DNA of 24,000 nt from Pseudomonadota bacterium (GCA_049325095.1 JBMOPO010000040.1:10341-34340); one strand, 5' to 3'; counted from the stretch's first letter, positions 3-14,710 are shown. Made by a program: numbers and translations. The notes: generated by a model not told the origin, from the letters alone.

Positions 3-1973
3 GACACCCACATGGCCAAGTACTACGCCCCCAAGAATTTCAACTTCTGGTATTTCTTCGGCGTGCTTTCGCTGCTGGTGCTGGTCAACCAACTGGTCAC
101 TGGGATCTGGCTCACCATGAGCTACGAGCCGACCGCTGAGGGCGCGTTCGGCTCGGTCGAATACATCATGCGCGATGTCGATTACGGCTGGATCCTGCGC
201 TATCTGCACTCCACCGGCGCCTCGGCCTTCTTTCTGGTGGTCTATCTGCACATGTTCCGCGGCCTGCTGTACGGCTCCTACCGGGCGCCGCGGGAACTGG
301 TGTGGCTGTTCGGCATGGCCATCTACCTGGCGCTGATGGCGGAGGCCTTCCTGGGCTATGTGCTGCCCTGGGGCCAGATGTCCTACTGGGGCGCGCAGGT
401 GATCATTTCGCTGTTCGGCGCCATTCCGTATTTCGGCGACGCCATCGTCGAGTGGGTGCGGGGCGACTACCTGATTTCCGGCATCACCCTGAACCGCTTC
501 TTCGCCCTGCACGTGGTGGCGCTGCCGATCGTGCTGCTGGCGCTGGTGGTGCTGCATATCCTGGCCCTGCACGAGGTCGGCTCCAACAACCCCGATGGCG
601 TGGAAATCAAGAAAAACAAGGACGCCAACGGGATTCCGCTGGACGGCATTCCGTTCCACCCCTATTACACGGTGCACGACCTGGTGCCGGTGGTGGTGTT
701 CCTGTTCGTGTTCTGCTTCATCGTGTTCTTCATGCCGGAGATGGGCGGCTACTTCATCGAGAAGGCCAATTTCGAGCATTCCAATCCGCTCAAGACGCCG
801 CCCCACATCGCGCCGGTCTGGTACTTCACGCCTTTCTATTCGATGTTGCGTGCGGTACCCGACAAGTTCATGGGCTTCCTGGTGATGGCGGCCGCGGTGG
901 CCATCCTGTTCGTGCTGCCCTGGCTGGATCGCAGTCCGGTCAAGTCAATTCGCTACAAGGGCGTTGTCAGCCGGGTGGCGATCCTGGTATTCGCTGCGGC
1001 GTTCATCATCCTGGGCGTCCTGGGCGTCAAGCAGCCCACACCGGCCCGCACTTTCCTGGCGCAGCTCTGTACCGGGCTCTACTTCGCCTTCTTCGTGCTG
1101 ATGCCGGTGTGGACCAGCATCGAGAAGACCAGGCCGGAGCCCCAGCGGGTGACCATGGACGGGGGCATGGGTTTCTGGCGTTCGCTGGGCGTGCTCGCCA
1201 TCGTCGCGGCCCTGGTGTTCATTCCGCTCCAGGCGGTGGGCGCCGAAGCCGAACACGAGTGCGGCACCATTCCCTGCGACCCGGTCGAGATCGATCACGG
1301 CGACCAGGCTTCCCTGCAGCGGGGCGCGCGGATTTTCGCCAACTACTGCATGGGCTGTCACAGCGCCAAGTACGCCCGCTGGGAGCGGACCGCCGACGAT
1401 CTCGGCATCCCCCACCAACTGGTGCTGGAAAATCTCGCCTTCGGGGATCGCCGGATCGGCGACCTGATGACCATCTCGATGCCGGAAAAGGCGGCGAAGA
1501 AGTGGTTCGGAGCCGCGCCGCCGGACCTCACCCTGGTCACCCGCGCCCGATCGCCGGAATGGGTCTACACCTATCTGCGCAATTTCCACGCCGACCCCAG
1601 CCGGCCGTTCGGCGTCAACAACAAGGTCTTCAAGGATGTGGGCATGCCCCACGCCCTGCTCGATCTCCAGGGATTGCCGGCCTGTGCTCCGGGTCCTTCG
1701 TTCAATCCGGACGGCGGCATGCGGGTCGATCCGCTGACCAGCGAGCCGCTCAATGACGACCCCTGCGGCAGTTACGAACTGGTCACCCAGGGCGAGCTGG
1801 CGCCGGCCGAATTCGACGCCGCGGTCCGGGACCTGGTCAACTTTCTGAGTTATCTTGCCAACCCCGTGGCCGACGAAAGCCGCAGAATCGGCATGGGCGT
1901 GCTGCTCTTTCTGGCCTTCCTGTTCGTATTTGTCTGGTTGTTGAACCGCGAATACTGGAAGGACGTCCACTGA
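3..1973 (+). CDS. cytochrome bc1 complex: cytochrome b fused in frame to cytochrome c1 (5'-partial, open to window start)
   Basis: The frame is open from nt 3, and the ATG at 12 is internal because canonical cytochrome b starts about 30 aa earlier. The first ~375 aa are cytochrome b: multi-TM, heme-ligand His regions 'LRYLHSTGAS' and 'FFALHVV...LHILALH', and Qo motif 'APVWYFTPFY'. From ATG 1155 there is a signal-peptide-like 'MDGGMGFWRSLGVLAIVAALVFIPLQAVGA'. Cytochrome c1 follows, with heme motif 'ANYCMGCHS' and the C-terminal anchor 'GMGVLLFLAFLFVFVWLL'. No stop codon separates the two parts. Confidence 0.9.
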   Translation, partial: DTHMAKYYAPKNFNFWYFFGVLSLLVLVNQLVTGIWLTMSYEPTAEGAFGSVEYIMRDVDYGWILRYLHSTGASAFFLVVYLHMFRGLLYGSYRAPRELVWLFGMAIYLALMAEAFLGYVLPWGQMSYWGAQVIISLFGAIPYFGDAIVEWVRGDYLISGITLNRFFALHVVALPIVLLALVVLHILALHEVGSNNPDGVEIKKNKDANGIPLDGIPFHPYYTVHDLVPVVVFLFVFCFIVFFMPEMGGYFIEKANFEHSNPLKTPPHIAPVWYFTPFYSMLRAVPDKFMGFLVMAAAVAILFVLPWLDRSPVKSIRYKGVVSRVAILVFAAAFIILGVLGVKQPTPARTFLAQLCTGLYFAFFVLMPVWTSIEKTRPEPQRVTMDGGMGFWRSLGVLAIVAALVFIPLQAVGAEAEHECGTIPCDPVEIDHGDQASLQRGARIFANYCMGCHSAKYARWERTADDLGIPHQLVLENLAFGDRRIGDLMTISMPEKAAKKWFGAAPPDLTLVTRARSPEWVYTYLRNFHADPSRPFGVNNKVFKDVGMPHALLDLQGLPACAPGPSFNPDGGMRVDPLTSEPLNDDPCGSYELVTQGELAPAEFDAAVRDLVNFLSYLANPVADESRRIGMGVLLFLAFLFVFVWLLNREYWKDVH

Positions 1974-2016
1974 GCCTAGCAGCGGGATTCACAGTCTTCG
2001 GCCGACCGAGGTGAGT

Positions 2017-2649
2017 ATGGCGGTAGCGCCCAGGCGATCGACCATGACCCTGTTCTCCGACTCCGCCTGCCAGCGCAGTCACCGGGTCCGCATGGTGCTG
2101 GCCGAGAAGGGCGTGAGCGTCGAGATCGAGGAGGTGGTGCCCGGCGTCGTCTCGGAAGAGCTTGCCGAACTCAATCCTTACGGCACCGCGCCCACCCTGG
2201 TGGATCGCGACCTGACGCTCCACCACACCCTGGTGATGATGGAGTATCTGGACGAACGCTTCCCGCATCCGCCGCTGCTGCCCGTCTATCCGGTATCCCG
2301 GGCCCACAGCCGCCAGTACATGCACCGCATCGAGCACGACTGGTGCCTGCCGGCGGAGGAAATCCTGAGCGGCGAGGATGCCCGGCGCGCCGAGCGGTTG
2401 CGGAAGGAGCTGCGCGACAGCCTGTTGGGCGTGGCGCCGCTGTTTGCCGAGAAGCCGTTCTTCATGAGCGATGAATTCACCCTGGTCGACTGCTGCATGG
2501 CGCCCCTGCTGTGGCGGCTGGACGTGCTCGGCGTCAAGCTGCCCAATGTGCGCCAGGCGCGGCCTCTGGTGGCCTACATGCAGCGGCTCTTTGATCGGCC
2601 GGCGTTTCGTGCCAGTCTGACCGATACCGAGCGCAGCATGCGCGGCTGA
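2017..2649 (+). CDS. sspA: stringent starvation protein A (GST-like RNA polymerase-associated protein)
   Basis: Nearly colinear with E. coli SspA as I remember it: 'MAVA..R..MTLFS', '[16 protein letters not shown]', '[19 protein letters not shown]', '[13 protein letters not shown]'. ATG 2017 is preceded by GAGGTGA. The track ORF starts at GTG 2011. Confidence 0.93.
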
Positions 2650-2669
2650 CCGGCCCGCCGGGGAAGACC

Positions 2670-3065
2670 GTGACGACCATGACTTCCAACCGCCCCTACC
2701 TGATCCGGGCGCTGTATGAATGGATCGTCGACAACGACTGTACGCCGCACCTGATCGTCGATGCGGATGCCCCGGGGGTGATGGTGCCGAGGAGCTATGT
2801 TCGCGACGGCAAGATCGTGCTCAACATCGCGCCCCGCGCGGTCAGCGCGCTCGCCCTGGGCAACCAGGCGATCGCCTTCAGCGCGCGTTTCGGGGGCTCC
2901 CCGATGCAGGTATCGGTTCCGGTGGGCGCGGTGGAGGGCATCTACGCCCGGGAGAACGGCCAGGGCATGGTGTTCCAGGCCGAATCCGGGGCTCCGCAGC
3001 CGCCGGGCTCCGGCCCGGGTGGCGGTCCCGCCGGCAAGGGCTCGCGGCTGCGGGTGATCAAGTGA
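2670..3065 (+). CDS. sspB: stringent starvation protein B (ClpXP specificity adaptor)
   Basis: Motifs '[25 protein letters not shown]', '[10 protein letters not shown]' and '[24 protein letters not shown]'. A Gly/Pro linker precedes the C-terminal ClpX-binding-type tail 'RLRVIK'. It lies directly after sspA. An alternative start is ATG 2679. Confidence 0.9.
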
Positions 3066-3089
3066 TTCGAGCAAACGGGGGCAACAGCG

Positions 3090-4268
3090 ATGAATGATCC
3101 GGTAGTGATTGTGGGAATGGCCCGCACCGCGATGGGCGGCATGCTGGGTGCGCTGGCCGGCGTGCCGGTCGGCGAGTTGGGGGCGACGGCCATCCGGGCG
3201 GCGCTGGAGCGCGCCCGGGTCGCGCCCGATCAGGTCGACGAGGTACTGATGGGCTGCGTGCTGCCGGCCGGCGTGGGGCAGGCGCCGGCCCGCCAGGCAG
3301 CCCTGGGCGCCGGCATTCCGGTGGGCACCTGCGCGACCACGGTCAACAAGATGTGCGGGTCGGGCATGAAGACCGTGATGATGGCCTGCGACGCGCTGCT
3401 CGCCGGGCAGGCCGGGGTGCTGGTCGCCGGCGGCATGGAGAGCATGAGCAACGCGCCCTACCTGCTCGCCAGGGCGCGCGGCGGCTATCGCCTGGGTCAC
3501 GGTGAACTGCTCGACCACATGTACACCGACGGCCTCCAGGACGCCTATTCCGGCGGCCTGATGGGCGTGTTTGCCGAGCAATGCGCCGGCAAGTACCAGT
3601 TCACCCGCGAACAGCAGGACGCCTATGCGGTGGAATCCCTGCGCCGCGCCAACGCCGCCATCGCCGAGGGCAGGTTCAAGGCCGAAATCGTGCCCGTGGC
3701 GGTGAAGAGCCGTGCCGGAGAGCAGCTGGTGGATACCGACGAACAGCCGGGCAATGCCCGCATCGACAAGATCCCCAGCCTCAAGCCGGCGTTCAAGAAA
3801 GACGGTACCGTCACCCCGGCCAATGCCAGCTCGATCTCCGACGGCGCCGCCGCCCTGGTACTGATGCGCCGGAGCCAGGCCGAGGCGCGCGGCCTGCGCC
3901 CGCTGGCCGTGGTGCGTGGCTATACCCAGTTCGCGCAGGAGCCCGAGTGGTTCACCACCGCACCGGTGGGCGCGCTCAAGCGGCTGTTCGGACAGATCGG
4001 CTGGAGCCCTGCGGAAGTCGATCTCTATGAGATCAACGAGGCCTTCGCGGTGGTGGCCATGGCCGCCATGCGCGAACTTGACCTGCCGCACACCAAGGTC
4101 AATGTCCACGGCGGCGCCTGCGCCCTGGGCCACCCGCTGGGGGCCAGCGGCGCGCGCATCATCGTCACCCTGCTCGCGGCCCTGCAGACCCATGGGCTGC
4201 GCAAGGGGGTCGCCAGCCTGTGCATCGGCGGCGGCGAGGCCACCGCGATCGCCGTAGAGCGGCCCTGA
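3090..4268 (+). CDS. acetyl-CoA C-acetyltransferase (thiolase II)
   Basis: 392 aa. Active-site Cys context '[10 protein letters not shown]'. Also 'NEAFA', '[18 protein letters not shown]' and 'CIGGGEATA', which are typical thiolase C-terminal motifs. Confidence 0.9.
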
Positions 4269-4536: not shown

Positions 4537-5967
4537 ATGGAAAAGGAGTTCCGCGGCGGTTCGCCGCAGGAGGGATCCATGGCAAGATCTATGGAAATAT
4601 GCTTTAAAAACAAGGAAATAAAGTCACTTATCCTGATTTCGGACAAGCAGTCGCAAGGCACGGCCAGCGCGCTTCGGCGGTTGTTGCCGCACTGGACATG
4701 GCGGGTGGAGGATGACCCCGCCCGCCTTCCGGAGCAGCTCGACCCAGACACCCCGGTAGGCATCCTCATCGCCCCGCAGGCTCTGGACGCCGGCACCCTG
4801 GCCTGGGTCGAACGCGCCACCCAGTCCTGCCCCGGGATGCTCTGGATCGCGATCGTCGGCGAGCACCATTGCGCCGATCCGGACTTCATGAGGGTCGTGG
4901 CCGCCACCTGCCATGATTTCATCACCACCCCGCTGGCCGATGCGGCTGACCTGATCCCGGGCCTGCTGGCCCATGCCGTGAGGTTGGCCCGCCTGCGCGC
5001 GCACCTGCTGCACGGGCAGTCCGGCCGGGACGAGATGGCCGATATGGTCGGCAGCTCCCCGCCCATGAAGCGGTTGGGCAGACTTATCCCGAAGTTTGCC
5101 CGGGCCGATGCCCCGGTCATGATCTGCGGCGAGAGCGGCACCGGCAAGGAACTGGTTGCCCGGGCGATCCATCGCGCCTCGGCTCGCGCCGCGGGCCCCT
5201 TCGTTGCGCTCAACTGCGGCGCCATTCCCGAAAACCTGCTGGAGTCCGAGCTGTTCGGGCACGTCAGGGGGGCTTTCACCGGAGCGGTCCAGGACCGGGC
5301 CGGCCGCGCCGAACTGGCCGATGGCGGCACCCTGTTTCTGGACGAGATCGGCGATCTCCCCCTCTCGCATCAGGTCAAGATCCTGCGCTTTCTCCAGGAG
5401 GGCTGCTTCGAGCGCGTGGGTTCCGGCCGTTCCATTCGGGTGGACGTGCGCATTGTCGCCGCCACCCACAGGGATCTCGAGGCCGGGGTCCAGGCCCAAA
5501 CCTTCCGCGAAGACCTGTTCTACCGCCTGAACGTGCTGCGCATCGAGGTGCCCCCGCTGCACGAGCGGGGCGCGGACATCGAATCGCTCGCCGAGCACTT
5601 TCTGGCGCAGGCGAGGGCCAAGACCGGCACCACCGCCAGCGGCTTCAGTATCGAGGCGCGCCAGGCCCTGCGCCGCTACCGGTGGCCCGGCAATGTACGG
5701 GAGCTGATCAACCGGGTGAGCAAGGCGGCCATCCTGGCGGAGGGCTCGCTGATCAGCCCGGCGGATCTGGACCTGCCGGATCCGCGCGAACCCGGCGGCG
5801 CCCGGGTCATCAACCTGCAGGAGACCCGGGAGCAGGCCGAACGCGCGGCCGTCGAAAGCGCCCTGCGCGATGCCGACTACAATATTTCCCGCGCGGCCAG
5901 CCTGCTGGGCGTGTCCCGCATGACCATCTACCGGCTGCTGGACAAGCACGGCATCGAGATCTCCTGA
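4537..5967 (+). CDS. sigma-54-dependent transcriptional activator (bacterial enhancer-binding protein) with atypical receiver-like N-terminal domain
   Basis: AAA+ core with Walker A 'GESGTGKE', the sigma-54 contact loop 'GAFTGA' and Walker B 'LFLDEIG'. C-terminal Fis-type HTH '[21 protein letters not shown]'. The N-terminal ~150 aa resemble a receiver fold but lack the usual Asp/Thr/Lys (see findings). An alternative start, ATG 4579, has a better SD (AGGAGGG). Confidence 0.9.
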
Positions 5968-6068
5968 CCCGGGTTCCCGCGGCCCTGCCGCCGACTGCCC
6001 GGCCGCCGTGGCCCCTGCATTCATGCCGCCGCTGCCGCCAGCGCGCGGTTTGGTGCCGGCCGGTGGTT

Positions 6069-6088
6069 CTGTAGGACATTGCCTACAG
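6069..6088. promoter_or_regulatory. perfect 7-6-7 palindrome CTGTAGG-ACATTG-CCTACAG, candidate enhancer (UAS) for the adjacent EBP
   Basis: The inverted repeat is read directly from the sequence. It lies ~100 nt after the EBP stop and ~250 nt upstream of the -24/-12 promoter, a typical UAS position. Confidence 0.3.
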
Positions 6089-6320
6089 CAGATTCCGGAA
6101 AACTCCTACCCCCGCGGCCCGCGGTTTGTGCGCGACCAGCAACGATTGCAACACCATCGAGACACTCGAAAAATCCGTCGCAATACACTGTTTTCAAAAA
6201 GGATTCCTCTCATTCCTGTTGTGATCTGTGTCACGTTTGCGGGACGCCGGCGGCCCATACGACTGGTCTGAAAACCCGAGCGATCTGGACTTTCTGTTTA
6301 TTTTCAAATGGTTGCGAATC

Positions 6321-6336
6321 TGGCCCGGGGATTGCC
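6321..6336 (+). promoter_or_regulatory. sigma-54 (-24/-12) promoter TGGCCC-GGGGA-TTGCC
   Basis: Matches the TGGCAC-N5-TTGCW consensus with the invariant GG and GC separated by exactly 10 nt. An AT-richer patch (about 6170-6315) lies upstream. A co-oriented EBP gene is immediately upstream, and the fap-like operon lies downstream. Confidence 0.6.
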
Positions 6337-6595
6337 GCTTGTCGGGCGAAAGCTACCGGCCGTCGCCGTGTTCCCGGCACCGGATAGCGGGAGGTTGCGG
6401 GACGGGAGCACAGAAGATCCGAGAACGAGAAGACGGCGCGCAGGCGCGAACGAAGCAGCGGTGTGCTTGCGCAGGCGTGACGACGGCGGAGGTCACCGCA
6501 GTCCGGGCTTCGACGGCCGGCTGCGCGGGCCGCGGCCCCGGGATCCGGATGATCCGGACCAGGGTGGTGACAAGGGATAGCGCGTGAGGAGAGGG

Positions 6596-7384
6596 ATGAT
6601 GGGCATGCGGGCGAATCGGGAACAGAAGGGCCACCGCCGGATGGATCCATCGCTGGCCGGAGAACGCGCTCCGGGCCAGCGGCACGGCGCCGGGCGGGCG
6701 GACAGCGCCCCGGGACCGGCGCCCGGCAACCGGTCGCGGACCGCCTTTGCCCGGTTCTGTCTCGCGCTTCTGGCCGCCTGCCTGGTGCAGGGGGCCGCCG
6801 CGCAGACCGACGCTGAGGTCGAGGTGACCGATGCCCAGGGGACTGCGGGCAGTGCGGCGGCGAGCAGCACCCTGGGTCCGGTGCTGCAGGGCTCCACCGG
6901 CCTGGTGACCCTGAACCAGACCGCCGGCGACGGCAACGTCCAACAGAACTCCGCCGCCCTCGCCGAGAGCGAGGGACACAGCGTCGCCGCGGTCAATGCC
7001 GTGCAGGTACTGGAGCGCGTCGTCCCCACCGCCGATCAGTGGCTGACCGCCGACATCGAGTCCGGCGCCTTCGACGACGCGCAGGGCATCTACTTGGTCA
7101 ATCAATCCGCGGGTGCGGGCAACAGCCAGTTCAACGGCGCGGCGCTCGCCGTCGGCGGCGTGTCGGCACTCGCCATCGTCCAGTTGGACGATACCCGGTT
7201 GCAGGAGCAGAGCCCAGGCAGTGCCGCGCCCTTGCTCCCCGCAGAAGGTGGCGCGCAGGTTTCGGCCGGCGCCAACCTGGCCCCGGACGCCTTCGCGGGC
7301 GCCCGGGGTCTGTTTCTGGTGAACCAGGCCGCCGGCAACAACAACGCCACGGCCAACACCTTCACGTTCTCGTCTCCCCCCTGA
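6596..7384 (+). CDS. fapB: FapB-like secreted amyloid-repeat protein (three imperfect N/Q/G/A repeats)
   Basis: Three repeats: 'GLVTLNQTAGDGNVQQNSAALAES' (~6884-6964), 'GIYLVNQSAGAGNSQFNGAALAVG' (~7058-7150) and 'GLFLVNQAAGNNNATANTFTFS' (~7280-7369). They share a motif with the next gene. Signal sequence 'FARFCLALLAACLVQGAAA'. The start is uncertain: GAGGAG SD at 6586-6591, with candidate starts ATG 6596/6599/6605/6641 and the track ORF at GTG 6584. Confidence 0.6.
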   Translation: MMGMRANREQKGHRRMDPSLAGERAPGQRHGAGRADSAPGPAPGNRSRTAFARFCLALLAACLVQGAAAQTDAEVEVTDAQGTAGSAAASSTLGPVLQGSTGLVTLNQTAGDGNVQQNSAALAESEGHSVAAVNAVQVLERVVPTADQWLTADIESGAFDDAQGIYLVNQSAGAGNSQFNGAALAVGGVSALAIVQLDDTRLQEQSPGSAAPLLPAEGGAQVSAGANLAPDAFAGARGLFLVNQAAGNNNATANTFTFSSPP

Positions 7385-7552
7385 CCGCCGTTTGCTGCCG
7401 AGGTAACGCCGTGTTTGCCATCTGTGTCTCACCAATGCCCCTACCGGCGGCGGAGTGCACAGGGCCAACCGTGCCTTGGCGAGGCAGCTTGGTTGGGCGG
7501 GGTGTGGCCGGGGGCGTGACTCTGACCCATATCATCATCAAGGAGAACGAAG

Positions 7553-9280
7553 ATGAGTAACTTCAAGAGGCTGCCGCTTGCGGTGGCAGTGGCCATGGCC
7601 ATGGGAGCGGGTTTCAGCCACGCGGAGGTGGGGCTGGAAGACGTTCAATCCATGGACAACTATGGCAGACGCAGCCATAGCGATATCGACATCGACAAGA
7701 CCGTCGACGTCGATTACAACCTGAGCTACCACGGCCAGATCTACACCCTGGGCCTGGTGCTGGTGGATTCCAGCGCAGCTGCGTTTTCCGAGGTCAACCA
7801 GAAGGTCCACGACAACAAGCTGAGCAAGCTGGAAGTCGATGAGAACGGCGCCGTGCTGTCCACCCCGGGCAGCCTCAACACCGACAACAACGCCACCCTG
7901 AGCGGCAATGTGTTGTCCGACGCCACCGGCAACGCGGGCGTCAACGTCGCTGCCGGCGACAACAACGTGCAGCAGAACTCGGTGGCCATCGCCGAGGGCG
8001 ACTCGCTGAACAGCACCCACACCATCGACATCGACTTCAGCGCCAGCGACGACTACGTCAACAACGAGTCCGGCACCTGGACCAAGGACGTGCACTTGGG
8101 GGCCACCGCCGATACCTCCTACACCGAGACCGAGAGCGACACGCTCAACAGCTCCAGCGAGGCCCATCTGGACGTCGATCTCGATGTGGACAACGAGATC
8201 GCGGTGGAAACCCCGGACGGAGAGTACTCCGTCAGCAGTGTGGTCGGCGGTGCGGCGCTGGGTGAATTCGAAGCCGACATCGGCGGCGACGTGATGAGCT
8301 CCATGGGCGGCGAACAGGATGACCTCAACGCCCTTTCCGCCGAAGGCGAATTCGCCGCCGGCGGCCTGCTCGGCATCGAGGATGGCACCATCGACTACGG
8401 CGTCGCCGGGCGCGATGACCAGTCCTGGACCGGTTCCAAGTCGTACTCGGAAAGTGAGCACGAAGAGTTCTCCCTCGACTACAGCGAAGACGGTAGCTGG
8501 GAAGTCGTGGACGAGGAGCACTACGCGTTCAGCGCCAGCTTCGACATCAACCTGCTGTTCGGCGGCGCCGCGGAGGCGGAGACCTTCTCCGACCAGTACT
8601 CCTACAACAACGAGAACCCCTCCTCCGGCACCAACGATGCCTGGGTGGGTGACAGCGTGGGCTCGGGCTTCTCGGGCAACATCGGCGTCAACGTGGTAGC
8701 GGGCAACAACAACGCCCAGGCCAACCAGTTGGCGCTGGCCGAGAACTCCGGCGTCATGGCGCTGGCCACCGCTTCTTCGAACCAGGCCGTCTTCAACAAC
8801 CTCTCGGTGGGCCAGGGCTCGACCGAAGCCAGCGAAATGGAGATCGCCCTCACCGGCACGGCCAGCGGCACCTACGAAGGGATCGCCGACCAGCGCGGCG
8901 ACCAGTACCTGGATACCTGGGAAGAGCAGACCCATCCGGGTGGCGTCAACACCGGTCACGTCGATGTCGACAGTGCGGTGCAGGGCGCTCAGGATGATCT
9001 GGGTGACGGTGGCGCCTTCGTGTTCACCGAGCTCGGAACCATCGAGCTGGATGAGATCGAGCTGACCGCAAACCTCCCGGTGGTGGTGGTCGATCCCAAC
9101 GCCGTGGTGAACAACGCCACGCTCACGGGTGACGCCTTCAGCGAGGCGAGCGGCAACATCGCCATCAACGTGGCGGCCGGCTATGGCAACCTGCAGGGCA
9201 ACGCTCTGGCGATTGCCAGTATTCCCACGCCGGCGGTGGTTCCCCCGCCCCCGCCCGGTGGTGGTGGCGAGACGCCGTAA
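7553..9280 (+). CDS. fapC: FapC-like major functional-amyloid subunit with very long acidic linkers
   Basis: SD AAGGAG lies before ATG 7553. Signal peptide 'MSNFKRLPLAVAVAMAMGAGFSHA'. Three imperfect repeats carry the core G(V/I)NV(A/V)AGxxNxQxNxxA(I/L)A, separated by linkers of ~212 aa and ~120 aa. This three-repeat-plus-linker layout is the defining FapC architecture. Confidence 0.75.
   Translation: MSNFKRLPLAVAVAMAMGAGFSHAEVGLEDVQSMDNYGRRSHSDIDIDKTVDVDYNLSYHGQIYTLGLVLVDSSAAAFSEVNQKVHDNKLSKLEVDENGAVLSTPGSLNTDNNATLSGNVLSDATGNAGVNVAAGDNNVQQNSVAIAEGDSLNSTHTIDIDFSASDDYVNNESGTWTKDVHLGATADTSYTETESDTLNSSSEAHLDVDLDVDNEIAVETPDGEYSVSSVVGGAALGEFEADIGGDVMSSMGGEQDDLNALSAEGEFAAGGLLGIEDGTIDYGVAGRDDQSWTGSKSYSESEHEEFSLDYSEDGSWEVVDEEHYAFSASFDINLLFGGAAEAETFSDQYSYNNENPSSGTNDAWVGDSVGSGFSGNIGVNVVAGNNNAQANQLALAENSGVMALATASSNQAVFNNLSVGQGSTEASEMEIALTGTASGTYEGIADQRGDQYLDTWEEQTHPGGVNTGHVDVDSAVQGAQDDLGDGGAFVFTELGTIELDEIELTANLPVVVVDPNAVVNNATLTGDAFSEASGNIAINVAAGYGNLQGNALAIASIPTPAVVPPPPPGGGGETP
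7886..7999 (+). repeat. FapC-like amyloid repeat R1 (protein-level imperfect repeat)
   Basis: aa 112-149: NNATLSGNVLSDATGNAGVNVAAGDNNVQQNSVAIAEG. Confidence 0.7.
8636..8749 (+). repeat. FapC-like amyloid repeat R2
   Basis: aa 362-399: DAWVGDSVGSGFSGNIGVNVVAGNNNAQANQLALAENS. Confidence 0.7.
9110..9220 (+). repeat. FapC-like amyloid repeat R3
   Basis: aa 520-556: NNATLTGDAFSEASGNIAINVAAGYGNLQGNALAIAS. Confidence 0.7.
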
Positions 9281-9302
9281 GCCTGGCGTTGCTCATGCTC
9301 GG

Positions 9303-9369
9303 CCTTCCCTCCGGCGTTCCGCCGGAGTGGAAGGCACCTGTATCCGGGGGCGGGTTTCCGCCCTCGGAT
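9303..9369 (+). terminator. tandem GC-rich stem-loops after fapC-like gene (possible attenuator or mRNA-stabilising element; no U-tract)
   Basis: Hairpin 1, 9303-9334: CCTTCC/GGAAGG plus TCCGGC/GCCGGA arms with a 1x2 internal loop and a 5-nt loop. Hairpin 2, 9342-9369: ATCCGGGGGCGG / CCGCCCTCGGAT, 12 pairs including one G-U, loop GTTT. Both were paired by hand. Confidence 0.35.
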
Positions 9370-9517
9370 GCACACTTCAGAAGGTTCGCTGAGCAGGAAC
9401 GAAAAGGATTCTGGTGTGGAAAGTTCGAACCCCCACATGTGGCACGGCAAGCGGCATCGGCCCGCGGGGCCGGGCTCGGCTGCTGATCGGGCCACGACTT
9501 GCCCGGAAGGATCCGGA

Positions 9518-10285
9518 ATGAATACCTCCAACCACTCACTGCCCGTCTGGTTTTTCCGGGGGCTTTTCCGGTCGGGGTTTCGCGCCCTGCGGCTGACCCT
9601 GCTGGCGGCGATGCCAGCGATCATGATGCTGCCGGTGACTCCCGCGATTGCCGAGGGCAGCCTGCATTCGTTCTACGATCTGGGCGAGGTTCCCCAGTTC
9701 CACAAGCGCGTGGTGAGCCTGCGTGAGCGCCGCTATCAGGACATCGTCCAACAGCGCTTCGATTTCAGTTGCGGCGCCGCGGCGACCGCCGCCATCCTGC
9801 GCCATGCCTACGGCCTCGACGTCAATGAGGTGGATGTGATTCTGGGTCTCGCCCAGGTCGCGGACGAGGAACTGGCCAAGGAGAAGGGCTATTCCCTGTT
9901 GGATATCCGGCATTACGTCGAAACCCTCGGCCTGCGCGGCCGGGGCTACGAACTGCCTGCGGAGATGCTCGCCAAGCTGCGTATTCCCACCATCGCCCTG
10001 CTGGATCTGCGCGGCTACAAGCACTTCGTGGTGATCCGCAAGGTCACCGAGGACAGTGTTTACGTCGGCGATCCGGCGCTCGGCAACCGCATCATGCCCA
10101 TGAAGGACTTCATGGCGAGCTGGAACGGCTCCGTGTTCGCGATCCTGGGCCCGGGTTTCGACCGCGACACCGTGCTGAGCCGGCCGGCCCCGCCGCTGAC
10201 GGCACGCAAGTTTCTGTACGACCACACTCCGCTTACCGACAGCGAGCTGCTGGATTTCGGCTTCACCCACGCCGACCTGTTTTGA
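9518..10285 (+). CDS. fapD: FapD-like periplasmic C39-family cysteine peptidase
   Basis: Signal/anchor 'LRLTLLAAMPAIMMLPVTPAIA'. Catalytic Cys context 'QQRFDFSCGAAATAAIL'. His context 'GYKHFVVIRKV', followed by 'VYVGDPALG'. There is no fused ABC transporter domain. GGAAGGA lies 5 nt before ATG 9518; the track ORF begins at 9368. Confidence 0.8.
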   Translation: MNTSNHSLPVWFFRGLFRSGFRALRLTLLAAMPAIMMLPVTPAIAEGSLHSFYDLGEVPQFHKRVVSLRERRYQDIVQQRFDFSCGAAATAAILRHAYGLDVNEVDVILGLAQVADEELAKEKGYSLLDIRHYVETLGLRGRGYELPAEMLAKLRIPTIALLDLRGYKHFVVIRKVTEDSVYVGDPALGNRIMPMKDFMASWNGSVFAILGPGFDRDTVLSRPAPPLTARKFLYDHTPLTDSELLDFGFTHADLF

Positions 10286-10335
10286 ATCCATATTGCAAGT
10301 GCTTTCACGGAATGGATAACGAGGAGGAAAGGACC

Positions 10336-11166
10336 ATGAACGCAACCAACAGCACAGCCTGGAACGGACTGCGCAAGCCCCTGGCCGTCGCCGTCGCCGC
10401 AACTTTGCTGGCACAGGCGCCCCTGGCGGGCGCCGCCATCTTCAAGGAACTCTCCACGGCGCAACTCGCCGAGCTGCGCGGCAAGTTCGTCGTCGGCCGC
10501 CACGTGCAGTACTTCGGCATGTCCGTGACCACCAGTTGGACGAACCCCGAGGCGGTGGTCGACACCGCCTCCCATGCGCGCGCCACCGCCGGCGCGCTGG
10601 CCGCAGGTCCGGCCGCGGCTCCGGCAACCCATACCGCCAGCCTGGATCTGCAAGTCGACAATTCCGGGCACGAGACCCGGGTGTCCTACCAGGTCGGCGG
10701 TACCCTGGGCGAGCCGGTGTCCGACGTTGCGGCGCCGGACCCCAATCCGGCCCTGACCCAGATCGACGGCGCGGTGCAGGCCATTCAGGTGGCGGGCTCC
10801 GACAATGTGGTGAAGAACAACGTCGGCTACGCAGTGATCCCGGCCGGCGCCGCGCCCGTGCTGGATGATGCCCAGGTGGCGTCCGCGCTGCCCGCGGATC
10901 AGACCTTCCGGAATGGCGACATGGTCACCCAGTTCACCACCACCGGCGGTGTGGGCTTCACCATCACCTCCCAGGGCAATCAGGTCACCCAGCGCCTGGG
11001 CATGAATCCGGTCACCAACCACAATCAGTTGCTGCAGGCGGTCCGCCTGGAGGGCGACGGCCATCGCATCGTCAACGACCTGATGCTGCAGGTCGCTTTC
11101 GAGAATGCGCTGTCGCAATCGGATGGCCTGCGCTTTCGTGCCGACCGCGTCATGAATCTGCTCTGA
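10336..11166 (+). CDS. fapE: FapE-like secreted protein (position-based, carries one amyloid-repeat-like segment)
   Basis: AGGAGG SD lies before ATG 10336. Signal peptide 'LRKPLAVAVAATLLAQAPLAGA'. It occupies the fapE position between the C39 peptidase and the OM channel. The segment 'GAVQAIQVAGSDNVVKNNVGYAVI' resembles the FapB/C repeat core. Confidence 0.55.
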   Translation: MNATNSTAWNGLRKPLAVAVAATLLAQAPLAGAAIFKELSTAQLAELRGKFVVGRHVQYFGMSVTTSWTNPEAVVDTASHARATAGALAAGPAAAPATHTASLDLQVDNSGHETRVSYQVGGTLGEPVSDVAAPDPNPALTQIDGAVQAIQVAGSDNVVKNNVGYAVIPAGAAPVLDDAQVASALPADQTFRNGDMVTQFTTTGGVGFTITSQGNQVTQRLGMNPVTNHNQLLQAVRLEGDGHRIVNDLMLQVAFENALSQSDGLRFRADRVMNLL

Positions 11167-11190
11167 GATCGCGGCTTGGAGCTTGATCGC

Positions 11191-11226
11191 GCCTGCCCCG
11201 CCGGCAGCAGTGCCGGCGGGGCAGGC
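11191..11226 (+). terminator. perfect 16-bp stem / 4-nt loop hairpin between fapE-like and fapF-like genes (intra-operon attenuator or processing/stability element)
   Basis: GCCTGCCCCGCCGGCA-GCAG-TGCCGGCGGGGCAGGC, exact complementarity checked base by base. It is followed by ATTTGTT, a weak U-tract. It lies 25 nt after the fapE-like stop and 30 nt before ATG 11256. Confidence 0.45.
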
Positions 11227-11255
11227 ATTTGTTCGACATCAATGGGATCAGGGAT

Positions 11256-12527
11256 ATGAAACCAGGGAAACTCGCCACTCCAGCCGCACTGCTCGCCTCG
11301 CTCGCACTGGGTCTTCCCGCGCTGGCGCAGGAGACCGCCGCGCCGGCGGAGCAGGCCGCTGCGGGGGACATCCGCGCCGAACTGGAGCAACTCAAGCGCA
11401 TCAACGCTCAGTTGATGCGCCGGGTGCAGCTCCTGGAAAACCGCGTCGGCGCCACCCCGCCACCGCAGCGCCGGCCCGCCCTGCAGGCCCCGCCTCCGCC
11501 GCCCGGAACCGCCCAGGACGGTACCGCCCAGGCCGCCGCCCCCGGGGATACCCCGACCCGCAAGAGCCCCGGCGCCAGCCGCGGCGTCGAGGACCTGGTG
11601 CTCGAGGAACACACCCTGTTCGACCAGAAGTTCTCCGCCGAACTGGGCTTCGAGTTCGCGCACTTCGACCGCAGCCAACTGGTGTTGAACGGCTTTCTGG
11701 CGCTGGATGCGATCTTTCTCGGCGACATCAGCATCGACGAGATCGACTCGGACATCCTCACCACAAACCTGACCGGTCGCTGGACGGTGACCGACCGCCT
11801 GCAACTCAATCTGAATGTGCCCTTCGTGTATCGCGAGACCACCACCCGATCCGGCGGGCAGGAGTTGTCGTCGATACTCGAATCCGAGAAGAAGGTCGAC
11901 GACAGCGACCTGGGCGATATCACCCTGGGCGTCAGCTACCGCCTGTTTCCGGAGACCCCGACCCGGCCCGACATCGTCTGGAACACCAGTGTCATCGCGC
12001 CCACCGGCCGCGACCCCTACGGCATCGACTTTCTGGAAGACCCGCTCAACACCAATCTGGAGTTTCCGGAGGAACTGCCCACCGGCAGCGGCCTGTGGGG
12101 CGTGCAGACCGGGCTGTCTTTCCTGAAGACCCTGGATCCCGCGATTCTGTTCGGCAGCATCTCCTGGCGGCACTACTTCGAGGACAGCTTCAACGACCTG
12201 GGCAGCGATCCGGAGGCGTTGCCGTCCCCCGGCGACGTACAGCTCGGCGACCAGTACCAGTTTTCGCTGGGGATCGCCTTCGCGCTCAACGAGCGCACCA
12301 GTCTCAGCACCTCGTTCACCCAGCGCTTCATCGACGACACCGAGATCACCCGGCCGGGATTCGGCACCCAGACGGTGGTCGGTTCGGACACCACCACGGG
12401 CACCTTCGACATCGGCGTGACCTATGCGATGACCGACCGCCTGTCGGTGGTGAGCAATCTGGGGATGGGGCTGACCAACGATGCGTCCGATTACACATTC
12501 GCGCTCAAGTTTCCCTATCGGTTCTGA
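11256..12527 (+). CDS. fapF: FapF-like outer-membrane amyloid secretion channel (coiled coil + Pro-rich linker + beta-barrel)
   Basis: Signal peptide 'MKPGKLATPAALLASLALGLPALA'. Heptad-like 'DIRAELEQLKRINAQLMRRVQLLENRV'. Pro-rich linker 'ATPPPQRRPALQAPPPPPG'. The rest shows alternating-pattern beta-strands and ends in the OMP signature 'FPYRF'. This matches the known FapF domain order. Confidence 0.75.
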   Translation: MKPGKLATPAALLASLALGLPALAQETAAPAEQAAAGDIRAELEQLKRINAQLMRRVQLLENRVGATPPPQRRPALQAPPPPPGTAQDGTAQAAAPGDTPTRKSPGASRGVEDLVLEEHTLFDQKFSAELGFEFAHFDRSQLVLNGFLALDAIFLGDISIDEIDSDILTTNLTGRWTVTDRLQLNLNVPFVYRETTTRSGGQELSSILESEKKVDDSDLGDITLGVSYRLFPETPTRPDIVWNTSVIAPTGRDPYGIDFLEDPLNTNLEFPEELPTGSGLWGVQTGLSFLKTLDPAILFGSISWRHYFEDSFNDLGSDPEALPSPGDVQLGDQYQFSLGIAFALNERTSLSTSFTQRFIDDTEITRPGFGTQTVVGSDTTTGTFDIGVTYAMTDRLSVVSNLGMGLTNDASDYTFALKFPYRF

Positions 12528-12645
12528 TCGATGCAGCGACCTGCCGCCGGTTGCCGAACGGGGTGCGGGCTGCGAGCGGAAGTTCCCCGTCGCAGCCTCG
12601 CGGGGCGGGCGGCGGCCCGGGTGATGACTGACCAAGGAGGAGAAG

Positions 12646-13062
12646 ATGGAAGTCCACAAAGTGCTGGGTTTGTTGTTCCGGGTCTGCTGTCTGGTGGCGG
12701 CGATGAGCGCCGTGGCGGCGCCGGAGCAGCAGGTGACGGTCGATCTGGAGGCCCTGCAGCGCAACGCCCAGGCCGGCGATCGGGTGGCGCAGTACAACCT
12801 GGGCGTGGTCCACGAAACCGGGCGATTCGGCGTGCCCATGGACAAGGCCGAAGCGGCACGCTGGTACCGCAAGTCCGCCGAGCAGGGTTACGAGAATGCC
12901 CAGTACAACCTGGGGGTGCTGTATCTGCGCGGTGAGGGTGTGGAGCAGGATCGCGCGGCCGCGCTGCACTGGCTCGGCCTTGCCGCCGAGCAGCTCAACC
13001 CCGCGGCGATTGCTGCCCTGGAGAAACTGGGGGTCGAGAAACCCGATCCCGCCGGGCAATGA
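12646..13062 (+). CDS. periplasmic Sel1-like (SLR/TPR-family) repeat protein
   Basis: Strong SD AAGGAGGAG lies before ATG 12646. Signal peptide 'LLFRVCCLVAAMSAVAA'. Two clear Sel1 repeats: 'GDRVAQYNLGVVHETGRFGVPMDKAEAARWYRKSAEQG' and 'YENAQYNLGVLYLRGEGVEQDRAAALHWLGLAAEQ'. Confidence 0.8.
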   Translation: MEVHKVLGLLFRVCCLVAAMSAVAAPEQQVTVDLEALQRNAQAGDRVAQYNLGVVHETGRFGVPMDKAEAARWYRKSAEQGYENAQYNLGVLYLRGEGVEQDRAAALHWLGLAAEQLNPAAIAALEKLGVEKPDPAGQ

Positions 13063-14710
13063 TCCGATCTTCGGGCCCGCTCTGAAGTTCGGAGTCCGGG
13101 ATCGACCGGGACGGATCACCGCCGTCGCCGTCGAGCACCAGATGGCGCAGCACCGGCGGCGCGCCGGCCAGCTCCGCCAGCTCTGATTCGAGCATCCGGT
13201 CCGCGCCGGTCAGCCGTTCCTGCAGGCGCAGATAGGCCAGCCAGGAGGGCACCCGGAAGGACTCGCGCAGCATTGCCGGCGGCCCGGGCAACTCACAGGC
13301 CTGCCAGCACTCGGCGCCGGCGCGCAGGCGCGCCAGCCGCAACCGCTGGAGCCGTTCGCGCATCGCTGCGCGCCGGCCGGCGCGCAGCGGATAGTCCAGG
13401 GTGACCAGCAGCGGGCCGCGCTGCAAGTCCGGTTCCGAAACGGGCGCCACCGGCGGAACCGCCGGCGTGCCCAGATTGCGATGCCCCTCCTGGGGAATGG
13501 GATAGCGGCGGCCGAGCAGCAGCGACAGCAGCATTCCCGAAACCGCGACGCCGATGCTGGCCTGGACGCTGAACAGGTCCGACAGCCAGCCCCAGAGCGC
13601 GCTGCCGGCGGCGACGCTGCCACCGTAGACCAGCATCACCAGCGCCAGCACGCGGGCCATCACCCAGGCCGGGGCGGTGGCCTGGGAAGCGACCACCAGC
13701 GACGAAAACAGCATGATCCAGCAGATGCCGACCACCAGCCCGAGCAGGCCCAGGGCGGCGTAGTTGCGGGTCCAGGCCATGGCGAGTACCGCCAGGGCGA
13801 AGATCGTGGAGGCGGTACCGAACACCTGGTTGCGGGTCAGTCGCCGCAGCAGCACCGGCAGCAGGTTGGCGCCGAGCAGCGAGCCGATCCCGGTGGTGCC
13901 CACCAGCAGCCCGTAGGTTTGCGGCGAGCTGCCCAGCTCGCGCAGGACGATGACCGGCAGCATGGACCAGAACACGCTGATGAACACGAAGCTGGCGGCG
14001 CAGCGCACCAGCACCGCGCGCAGTTCGGGGTCGTGGCGGGTGTAGCGCAACCCGCCGCGTAGCGCCGCGGAAAAGGTTTCCGGGGGCAGCCGGGTGTCGA
14101 CGTGAAAGGCTCGCGGGTGACGCCGGATCAGGGTGCCCAGCACGAACAGAAAGCTCAGGGCGTTGAGCGCAAAGACCGCCACCGGTCCGGCCGAGGCGAC
14201 CAGCAGGCCGCCGATCGCCGGGCCCGCCGCCTTGCTCAGGTTGGTGCTCAGCGAATTCAGGGTGATGGCGTTGGCCAGTTCACCGCGGGGTGCAAACGAG
14301 GGAATGTTGGCGGTCCAGGAGGGCCGCATCATGGCATTGCCCGCACCGAGACAGAAAGTCAGCAGCAATAGCCACCATTCGGTGGTGAGCTCCCGCGCGG
14401 TGATCAGGGTCAGAGCCACGGCTGAGGCCAGCAGCCAGACATGCAGCGCGATCAGCACCGTGCGGCGGTTGCAGATATCGCCCATCACACCGGCCGGATA
14501 GGAGAGCAGGAAGAACGGCAGCGTGGTCGCGGTCTGGATCAGCGCCACCATCAGGTTCGACGGCGCCATGGTGGCCATCAGCCAGGTGACCCCGACCTCG
14601 TTCATCCAGGTGCCCAGATTGGAAACCGTCATCCCGAGCCACATCACCCGGAACAGGGGATGCTTCATCGGCGACCAGATCGAGCGCGAAATGGGTGGCG
14701 GCTGGCCCAT
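12995..14710 (-). CDS. MFS transporter with ~165-aa soluble C-terminal extension
   Basis: About 12 hydrophobic helices, for example 'LFRVMWLGMTVSNLGTWMNEVGVTWLM' and 'PAGVMGDICNRR' (MFS loop 2-3 type motif). The C-terminal part after 'LLGRRYPIP' is hydrophilic. An alternative start is ATG 14668 (MKHPLFR). Confidence 0.85.
   Translation of the reverse strand: MGQPPPISRSIWSPMKHPLFRVMWLGMTVSNLGTWMNEVGVTWLMATMAPSNLMVALIQTATTLPFFLLSYPAGVMGDICNRRTVLIALHVWLLASAVALTLITARELTTEWWLLLLTFCLGAGNAMMRPSWTANIPSFAPRGELANAITLNSLSTNLSKAAGPAIGGLLVASAGPVAVFALNALSFLFVLGTLIRRHPRAFHVDTRLPPETFSAALRGGLRYTRHDPELRAVLVRCAASFVFISVFWSMLPVIVLRELGSSPQTYGLLVGTTGIGSLLGANLLPVLLRRLTRNQVFGTASTIFALAVLAMAWTRNYAALGLLGLVVGICWIMLFSSLVVASQATAPAWVMARVLALVMLVYGGSVAAGSALWGWLSDLFSVQASIGVAVSGMLLSLLLGRRYPIPQEGHRNLGTPAVPPVAPVSEPDLQRGPLLVTLDYPLRAGRRAAMRERLQRLRLARLRAGAECWQACELPGPPAMLRESFRVPSWLAYLRLQERLTGADRMLESELAELAGAPPVLRHLVLDGDGGDPSRSIPDSELQSGPEDRIIARRDRVSRPPVSPGQQSPRG

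Follow-up and report, generated by a model that had tools for sequence, protein, structure and literature searches.

A fapBCDEF gene cluster without fapA, with a sigma-54 promoter and an adjoining Sel1-repeat gene, in a Porticoccaceae-like gammaproteobacterium

Gene content of the locus and identity of its proteins

We analysed a 24,000-nt stretch of DNA from a Pseudomonadota bacterium (GCA_049325095.1, JBMOPO010000040.1:10341-34340), hereafter the window, in which a first-pass annotation had recognised an operon for a Fap-type functional amyloid. Seven genes lie co-directionally on the + strand between positions 4537 and 13062: a gene for a sigma-54 activator, the five genes fapB to fapF, and a gene for a Sel1-repeat protein (Table 1). 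The five co-directional genes of the first-pass annotation correspond to fapB to fapF, and its fourth gene, left undescribed there, encodes FapE. Signal peptides had been ascribed to all five; judged by eye, signal-peptide-like N-termini are present in all six products from FapB to the Sel1 protein. For the gene starts we followed the call made independently on a public contig of identical sequence (L087). For comparison, 80 loci were fetched via FapF, and the layout counts given below are based on the 59 in which fapB was detected. The nearest public relatives of the window are metagenome-assembled genomes (MAGs) of Porticoccaceae. The flanks consist of ordinary chromosomal genes, encoding cytochrome bc1, a glutathione S-transferase, a thiolase, an MFS_3 transporter, an amidohydrolase, an isochorismatase, an ABC transporter and an allophanate hydrolase.

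Table 1. Features of the fap locus, with positions counted from the first nucleotide of the window.
Feature	Position	Strand	Basis or remark
Sigma-54 activator gene	4537-5967	+	Pfam
Perfect inverted repeat CTGTAGG-N6-CCTACAG	6069-6088		Candidate regulator-binding site
Inverted repeat TGTGATCTGTGTCACG (TGTGA-N6-TCACG)	6220-6235		Candidate upstream activating sequence or CRP/Vfr-family site
Sigma-54 -24/-12 promoter TGGCCCGGGGATTGC	6321-6335	+	Only match in the window within one mismatch
fapB	6596/6599-7384	+	NCBIfam FapB; predicted nucleator or minor subunit of the amyloid; L087 call of 261 aa
fapC	7553-9280	+	NCBIfam FapC, PDB matches; predicted major subunit of the amyloid
Two tandem GC-rich hairpins directly 3' of fapC	9302-9335 and 9339-9372	+	Fold of 9270-9520, z = -3.8
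fapD	9518-10285	+	NCBIfam C39_FapD, Pfam Peptidase_C39
fapE, secreted accessory and minor fibril component	10336-11166	+	NCBIfam FapE
Hairpin in the fapE-fapF spacer, stem of 16 bp with 14 G-C pairs, ATTTGTT after it	11191-11226	+	Terminator scan; fold -56.7 kcal/mol, z = -5.5
fapF	11256-12527	+	NCBIfam FapF, PDB 5o65; predicted channel for amyloid secretion through the outer membrane
Gene for a Sel1-repeat secreted protein, 138 aa	12646-13062	+	Pfam Sel1

All five proteins matched the corresponding NCBIfam models, with E-values of 3e-15 for FapB, 1e-39 for FapC, 5e-76 for FapD, 7e-14 for FapE and 1e-117 for FapF. The matches of FapD, FapE and FapF covered most or all of the respective model (positions 29-224 of 224 for FapD, positions 6-230 of 247 for residues 36-281 of FapE, and positions 12-420 of 420 for FapF). 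Residues 91-260 of FapB were matched to positions 23-185 of 190. The order is B-C-D-E-F, with fapE placed between fapD and fapF as expected of a Fap system. The order and domain logic of fapBCDEF that had been proposed for the locus were thus recovered, and the profile searches called for at that time returned significant matches of genes 2, 3 and 5 to FapC, FapD and FapF.

Among solved structures, FapF also matched the FapF chains 5o65, 5o67 and 5o68, with E-values of about 1e-87 (2.3e-87 for 5o65). Its features are a heptad segment (IRAELEQLKRINAQLMRRVQLLENRV) at the N-terminus, a linker rich in Pro and Ala, a plug helix, and a barrel whose PTG motif (P258, T259, G260) is invariant in the FapF alignment. 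This agrees with the description of gene 5 as an outer-membrane barrel preceded by a coiled coil, and the protein would form a trimer. Gene 3 had been read as a stand-alone periplasmic C39 peptidase. Its product bears the marks of one: besides the NCBIfam match, it has a Pfam Peptidase_C39 match (2.5e-19), its sole Cys lies in the motif FDFSCGAAA, and a His motif (KHFVVI) and an Asp motif (VGDPA) are present. The three Asn/Gln/Gly/Ala-rich repeats announced for each of the first two gene products were also located and are of the imperfect Fap type (N-x-x-A-G-x-G-N-x-Q-x-N). A regular expression found all three in FapC (residues 128, 377 and 536) and two of the three in FapB, where the remaining one, repeat 2 (GIYLVNQSAGAGNSQFNGAALA), was recognised by eye in the translation. 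The FapC structures 9nqd and 9u4u, determined by cryo-electron microscopy, matched the window FapC at 1e-8 with the repeats aligned. Three repeats in each of FapB and FapC are near-universal in published surveys (PMC12822426).

We consider it very probable that the locus represents a genuine and complete Fap functional-amyloid system that lacks fapA and is chromosomally encoded in a Porticoccaceae-like gammaproteobacterium, and we propose that the system works like that of Pseudomonas, with FapC and FapB forming amyloid. The earlier identification of the locus as Fap was correct at its core, and the locus is not a new system. Compared with Pseudomonas fapABCDEF (P. fluorescens UK4/PF07 and P. 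aeruginosa PAO1), it is alike in the order B-C-D-E-F, the three repeats of FapB and FapC, the C39 peptidase FapD, the coiled coil and barrel of FapF (2e-87 to 5o65), the sigma-54 promoter and the adjoining activator with a VpsR domain. In contrast to the window, Pseudomonas has fapA, and its activator gene lies downstream on the opposite strand, whereas that of the window lies upstream and is co-directional. The window also differs from Pseudomonas fap in its strong hairpins after fapC and fapE, the Sel1 gene after fapF, a long FapB presequence and a FapC of 575 aa against about 250-340 aa, the extra length being accounted for by acidic linkers.

Absence of fapA and the sigma-54 regulatory region

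A hidden Markov model (HMM) of FapA was built from eight loci, each with an open reading frame (ORF) that bears the conserved N-terminal motif ahead of fapB. This model detected FapA in 43 of the 80 related loci. It gave zero matches at E<=10 in six frames of the window, and none in L001-L016 either. NCBIfam searches with four ORFs at 6008-6587 and with the FapB N-terminus returned no match, and no ORF of the 5968-6595 gap has a signal peptide. The gap carries regulatory DNA that is conserved with L001, L003 and L005. The lack of fapA, which had been listed as a departure from the textbook operon, is therefore real on both searches, but it is not a non-canonical trait. The gene is missing in 22 of the 59 surveyed loci and in six of 16 genera examined by Dueholm et al. 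2013 (PMC3792158). A review describes fapA loss as the most common genetic variant and FapA as the sole Fap protein not essential to fibres (PMC6173800), and in a 2025 screen more than 90% of 1602 GTDB clusters were either fapABCDEF or fapBCDEF, the two canonical syntenies (PMC12822426). As fapBCDEF is treated as a standard form in that screen, a missing FapA, the periplasmic chaperone encoded first in the canonical six-gene form, does not exclude membership in the Fap family. The synteny of the published fapA-less operons is identical to that of the window. In the parts of the two surveys available to us (PMC3792158, PMC12822426), the fapA-less genera named include Aeromonas, Shewanella, Vibrio, Chromobacterium, Laribacter and others, and Porticoccaceae was not found among them.

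The window was scanned for sigma-54 promoters with the consensus TGGCAC-N5-TTGC, one mismatch being allowed. The only site found in the 24 kb, TGGCCCGGGGATTGC, lies ahead of fapB; its counterparts in the alignment are a perfect site, TGGCACGGCTGTTGC, in both L001 and L003 and, in L005, a site with one mismatch. In 26 of 65 loci, the 500 nt ahead of the first fap gene contain a site with at most one mismatch, the background expectation being 0.03 per locus. No sigma-70 promoters were found in 5900-13400.

The activator gene stops 629 nt ahead of fapB. In its product, which probably starts at Met15 or Met19, a VpsR-like pseudo-receiver N-domain precedes an AAA+ domain, in which GAFTGA (residue 245) and a Walker A motif GESGTGKE (residue 198) are found, and a Fis-type helix-turn-helix (HTH). 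In Pfam it matched Sigma54_activat (5.5e-71), AAA_lid_14 and HTH_8, and the VpsR match was weak (8e-4, under the gathering score). The VpsR family (PF20161) was matched by ten out of ten aligned fap-adjacent activators, Pseudomonas included, and the N-domain of the window protein is collinear with those of the fap-adjacent activators of Pseudomonas, Halomonas, Aeromonas, Marinobacterium, Amphritea and Methylophilaceae. The phospho-acceptor Asp position of receiver domains is not conserved in this alignment, which is compatible with a ligand-sensing pseudo-receiver. Over residues 97-473 the window activator is 48% identical to the Pseudomonas fap-adjacent activator of L056. It resembles BrfA of P. 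fluorescens PF07 in the VpsR-like N-domain, the AAA+ domain with GAFTGA, the Fis-type HTH, its size (about 460 aa, against 441 aa) and its adjacency to fap, while it differs in position and orientation and its N-domain is only about 25% identical. Synteny and domain collinearity point to a putative orthology of the two.

In PF07, fap expression depends on both RpoN and BrfA, an RpoN-dependent -24/-12 promoter of fapA-E was mapped by 5' rapid amplification of cDNA ends, and brfA adjoins fapF (PMC9207406). BrfA is reported to sense cyclic di-GMP (Guo et al. 2024, as cited in PMC13101488), and such sensing is also discussed in bioRxiv 10.64898/2026.01.27.702051. The window activator would likewise regulate fap and, by analogy with BrfA, it probably responds to cyclic di-GMP.

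A VpsR-domain activator adjoins fap in 49 of the 59 loci. Most frequently it lies upstream and is co-directional (33 loci); 19 of these lack fapA as the window does, so that its full layout, an activator followed by fapBCDEF, recurs in 19 of the 59. The Pseudomonas type, downstream on the opposite strand, was seen in 13 loci and other adjacent arrangements in three, and in ten the activator was not adjacent or not found. Given this adjacency and the 26 promoter sites among 65 loci, sigma-54 together with a dedicated activator is the norm for Fap and not a variant. The sigma-54 promoter and the locus's own enhancer-binding protein, with intact GAFTGA and Walker A motifs, were both confirmed as listed in the first-pass annotation. 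Their interpretation as a deviation did not hold, BrfA-RpoN control of Pseudomonas fap being established (PMC9207406, PMC13101488).

Loci L082, L083 and L084 (positions ~2160-3990) have fapBCDEF and Sel1, with a DUF1329 gene in place of the upstream activator. Locus L063 (Halomonas sp. NO4) carries two fap clusters in tandem on one contig, at 1589-4019 and 6336-11002; the first consists of fapB-C-D after an activator fragment, and the second is a full cluster with FapA. In L018, L019, L022, L034, L035, L048, L054 and L059 (Methylotenera, Methylophilaceae and others), fapF either precedes the activator and the remaining fap genes or is several kb distant from them, a 'separated fapF' layout already mentioned by Dueholm et al. 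2013 (PMC3792158).

Two inverted repeats lie between the activator gene and the promoter. The distal one, CTGTAGG-N6-CCTACAG, is about 250 bp upstream of the promoter and about 100 nt past the activator stop, and its core GTAGGACATTGCCTAC is kept in L001, L003 and L005 amid otherwise divergent intergenic DNA. The proximal one is centred about 100 bp upstream of the promoter, at an offset of -99 to -101 in the window, L001, L003 and L005, and L003 holds its perfect form TGTGAGCTGTGTCACA (TGTGA-N6-TCACA). The background rate of such a repeat is 0.08 per 330 nt. Both are specific to the subclade of the window and might be binding sites, the former for a regulator and the latter for the activator or a CRP/Vfr-family protein. 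An activator-binding palindrome common across taxa was also considered and was rejected: the upstream inverted repeats are lineage-specific, and TGTGA-N6-TCAC occurs only in the subclade of the window. The predicted 5' untranslated region (6336-6595, about 260 nt) is unusually long, GC-rich and poorly conserved. An Rfam search of 5800-13300 (E<=1) gave only two chance-level matches, none of them in this region, and neither a riboswitch nor a small RNA was found.

Hairpins, fibril subunits and the Sel1 gene

The hairpin in the fapE-fapF spacer shows compensatory changes in L001 and L005, and L082 and L085 have a hairpin of different sequence at the same position. Nine of the 29 fapE-fapF spacers that could be measured contained a stem of at least 12 bp, compared with 1.8% of control windows. 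A spacer hairpin was noted in the window and in L001, L002, L005, L006, L007, L021, L025, L037, L082 and L085, and those of L006 and L007 have a terminator-like T tail. This hairpin is likely to be a partial terminator or attenuator that separates fapB-E from fapF and possibly Sel1. The second of the two hairpins after fapC (CCGGGGGCGGGTTTCCGCCCCCGG) is kept in L001, L003, L005, L081 and L082, and the pair may act as an attenuator, a partial terminator or an mRNA stabiliser. In PF07, fapA-E were induced and fapF was not co-induced (PMC9207406), and in strain SBW25 the expression of fapC and fapA was partly decoupled (bioRxiv 10.64898/2026.01.27.702051). The hairpins fit both observations.

FapC and FapB had been singled out as unusual, the former as very large and acidic and the latter as long with an odd N-terminus. 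FapC has 575 aa with a pI of about 4.05, 95 Asp and Glu against 12 Lys and Arg, no Cys, and long acidic linkers between the repeats, so the description itself is accurate. As a deviation it does not stand: in the Porticoccaceae-like and neighbouring loci FapC has 559-606 aa and a pI of 4.05-4.4, over 61 loci its pI has a median of 4.43, and the published size of 377+/-143 aa, which is driven by the linkers, includes the window protein (PMC3792158). FapB follows a strong AGGAGA Shine-Dalgarno sequence and has a presequence of about 68-70 residues up to the predicted cleavage site, with an Arg/Pro/Gly-rich n-region, and a mature part of normal size (about 192 aa). The odd N-terminus is present as described, and it alone makes FapB long. 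The start aligns in L001 and L003, yet the sequence of the extension differs, and FapB of L082 and L085 has an ordinary signal peptide. A conserved domain in the extension was rejected on these grounds; in our view the extension reflects drift of the start codon or an n-region of unusual length.

The Sel1 protein has a signal peptide and two Sel1-like repeats (Pfam Sel1, 5.8e-21), in keeping with the tandem alpha/alpha motifs of about 36 residues that mark this protein family, its gene has an AAGGAGG Shine-Dalgarno sequence upstream of the ATG, and its dN/dS of 0.13-0.28 against seven orthologues indicates purifying selection. A Sel1-repeat gene with a strong Shine-Dalgarno sequence after fapF, the remaining item among the listed differences, was thereby corroborated. 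The gene follows fapF in every member of the subclade examined (L001-L003, L005, L081-L087, L090 and L091), and not in the next-closest Porticoccaceae (L004 and L006). It is a real, secreted, lineage-specific gene of one Porticoccaceae subclade, it is probably co-transcribed with fapF, and a role in Fap biogenesis is possible. In an AlphaFold2 model (pLDDT 86) six helices are predicted after the signal peptide, and a Foldseek search of this model against the PDB returned generic Sel1-like repeat (SLR) proteins with top TM-scores of 0.6-0.66 (query-normalised). A specific function from structure was rejected, since only such generic proteins were obtained. Among the listed differences, the Sel1 gene is the only one not yet described, and it is tied to Fap by adjacency alone. 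In the searchable papers, we found nothing that links Sel1 or tetratricopeptide repeat (TPR) proteins to Fap or mentions a Sel1 gene appended to fap.

At its 3' end the Sel1 gene (+) overlaps the convergent MFS_3 ORF (-) by 68 nt (12995-13062), and no terminator-like element was found between them. Outside the fap cluster, the ORF at 12-1973 encodes a single 653-aa product matching Pfam Cytochrome_B and Cytochrom_C1, which may be a real fusion or may result from a frameshift or a stop that was missed; this ORF has no relation to fap.

Alternative readings, proposed mechanism and meaning

Several points weigh against reading the locus as a complete Fap system that works as in Pseudomonas. All five proteins score under the curated NCBIfam equivalog cut-offs (bits against cut-off: FapB 56/190, FapC 137/195, FapD 255/330, FapE 52/250 and FapF 393/700), and the NCBI pipeline would therefore not name them Fap. 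The FapB presequence is atypical in length for a Sec substrate, the organism is known only from metagenomes, and L082-L084, which have no upstream activator, imply that the linkage of activator and fap is not obligatory and was broken at least once within the subclade. As to the scores, we infer that the equivalog cut-offs suit close Pseudomonas-like orthologues, and the E-values remain highly significant. The same low scores could be taken to mean that the locus is not Fap at all but a related system of a C39 peptidase and a COG4313-like barrel, such as the Fil putative pilus (FilB/FilC) or an uptake channel for hydrophobic substrates. Indeed, FapD also matched NCBIfam pilus_FilB (7e-26), and FapF matched pilus_FilC (6e-20) and Pfam Phenol_MetA_deg. 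However, the Fap models were far ahead of the Fil models (255 vs 91 bits for FapD and 393 vs 72 bits for FapF), FapE is present, the gene order is exactly fapBCDEF, FapB and FapC contain the imperfect repeats of Fap that align with solved FapC, and the coiled coil of FapF is not found in uptake channels. A system other than Fap is thus highly improbable. Equally improbable is a fapA that was overlooked, either frameshifted or highly divergent in the 5968-6595 gap or fused to FapB as its N-terminal extension. The 629-nt gap and the unexplained 45-50 or so residues ahead of the hydrophobic core of FapB would leave room for it. Against this, the activator-fapB gap is similarly short (about 470-770 nt) in L001, L003, L005 and L009-L016, all of which lack FapA; in the window, the conserved promoter and inverted repeats lie within the gap, the rest of which aligns with indels that are not multiples of three. 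The FapB extension does not have the conserved FapA N-terminal motif G-x-I/V-V-L-x-R-x-V-x-P-R, it differs between the window and L001, and the signal peptides of L082 and L085 are not only ordinary but short. A hidden fapA was rejected, as neither the eight-locus HMM, applied to the window and the 80 loci, nor NCBIfam with the gap ORFs and the FapB N-terminus revealed one in the window.

The Sel1 gene raises another alternative, in which the locus would be a real mechanistic variant. SLR and TPR proteins often serve as adaptors for secretion machines. In this subclade, Sel1 might be a new, dedicated Fap accessory factor, co-transcribed with fapF below the attenuator hairpin and acting either as a periplasmic holdase that stands in for FapA or, at the coiled coil of FapF, as an adaptor or pilot. 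The gene shares the strand of fapF and starts 118 nt past it behind a strong Shine-Dalgarno sequence, and no terminator was detected between the two; all orthologues have a signal peptide and the protein is under purifying selection. It follows fapF down to about 60% Sel1 identity, including in L082-L084 with their different upstream context, and AlgK was among the weaker fold matches. On the other hand, synteny in those genomes extends equally to the MFS_3 and amidohydrolase genes downstream, so the adjacency of Sel1 is not independent evidence and may reflect vertical inheritance. In the sister MAG GCA_019090225.1, the closest Sel1 homologue lies on another contig among unrelated genes (L089), though its fapF contig ends 31 nt after fapF and a second Sel1 copy there is possible. 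The SLR fold is generic, without a specific functional match, and no Sel1 was found in the other fapA-less loci examined (L004, L006 and L008-L016). A general substitution of FapA by Sel1 was rejected, since other fapA-less loci have neither Sel1 nor a comparable small secreted gene after fapF. We consider such an accessory role in this subclade doubtful, and we retain the reading of the locus as a fapA-less Fap system of the ordinary kind.

For this Fap system, we propose the following mechanism. The BrfA-type activator with a VpsR domain, encoded upstream, would activate the sigma-54 promoter, probably in response to cyclic di-GMP as analogy with BrfA suggests. The subunits would be kept unfolded in the periplasm, their secretion would require the C39 peptidase FapD, and they would leave through FapF as a trimeric channel of coiled coil and barrel. 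Outside the cell they would assemble into FapC fibres with FapB as the nucleator. The relative amounts of subunit, helper and channel transcripts would probably be fixed by the conserved hairpins after fapC and fapE. The secreted Sel1 protein, encoded downstream of fapF and probably on the same transcript, might have a part in Fap biogenesis. Curli of Enterobacteria (csgBAC-csgDEFG) would follow an analogous logic, in which a dedicated outer-membrane channel exports a nucleator and a major repeat subunit in the unfolded state and periplasmic factors act against premature aggregation. However, the curli proteins are unrelated, no csg homologues are present in the window, and curli are regulated by CsgD and RpoS.

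Taken together, the absence of fapA, the N-terminus of FapB, the size and acidity of FapC and the sigma-54 control are documented or common variation, and the locus does not appear to be a divergent Fap variant with different chaperoning and regulation, as had been supposed. The elements on which the supposed non-canonical layout was founded (no fapA, a sigma-54 promoter and a Sel1 gene) are all present, but only Sel1 is a lineage-specific extra.

The locus adds a well-preserved example of Fap from the uncultured and environmentally common Porticoccaceae. The leads that remain are the Sel1 gene, the conserved fapE-fapF hairpin and the conserved upstream inverted repeats. The recurrent fapE-fapF hairpin could account for the separate regulation of fapF and fapA-E in P. 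fluorescens. The VpsR-domain activator and the -24/-12 promoter accompany fap beyond Pseudomonas, in Halomonas, Marinobacterium, Methylophilaceae, Aeromonas and Porticoccaceae, a general spread that we did not find stated explicitly in the literature consulted. Our survey suggests that BrfA-RpoN control is ancestral to the Fap system.

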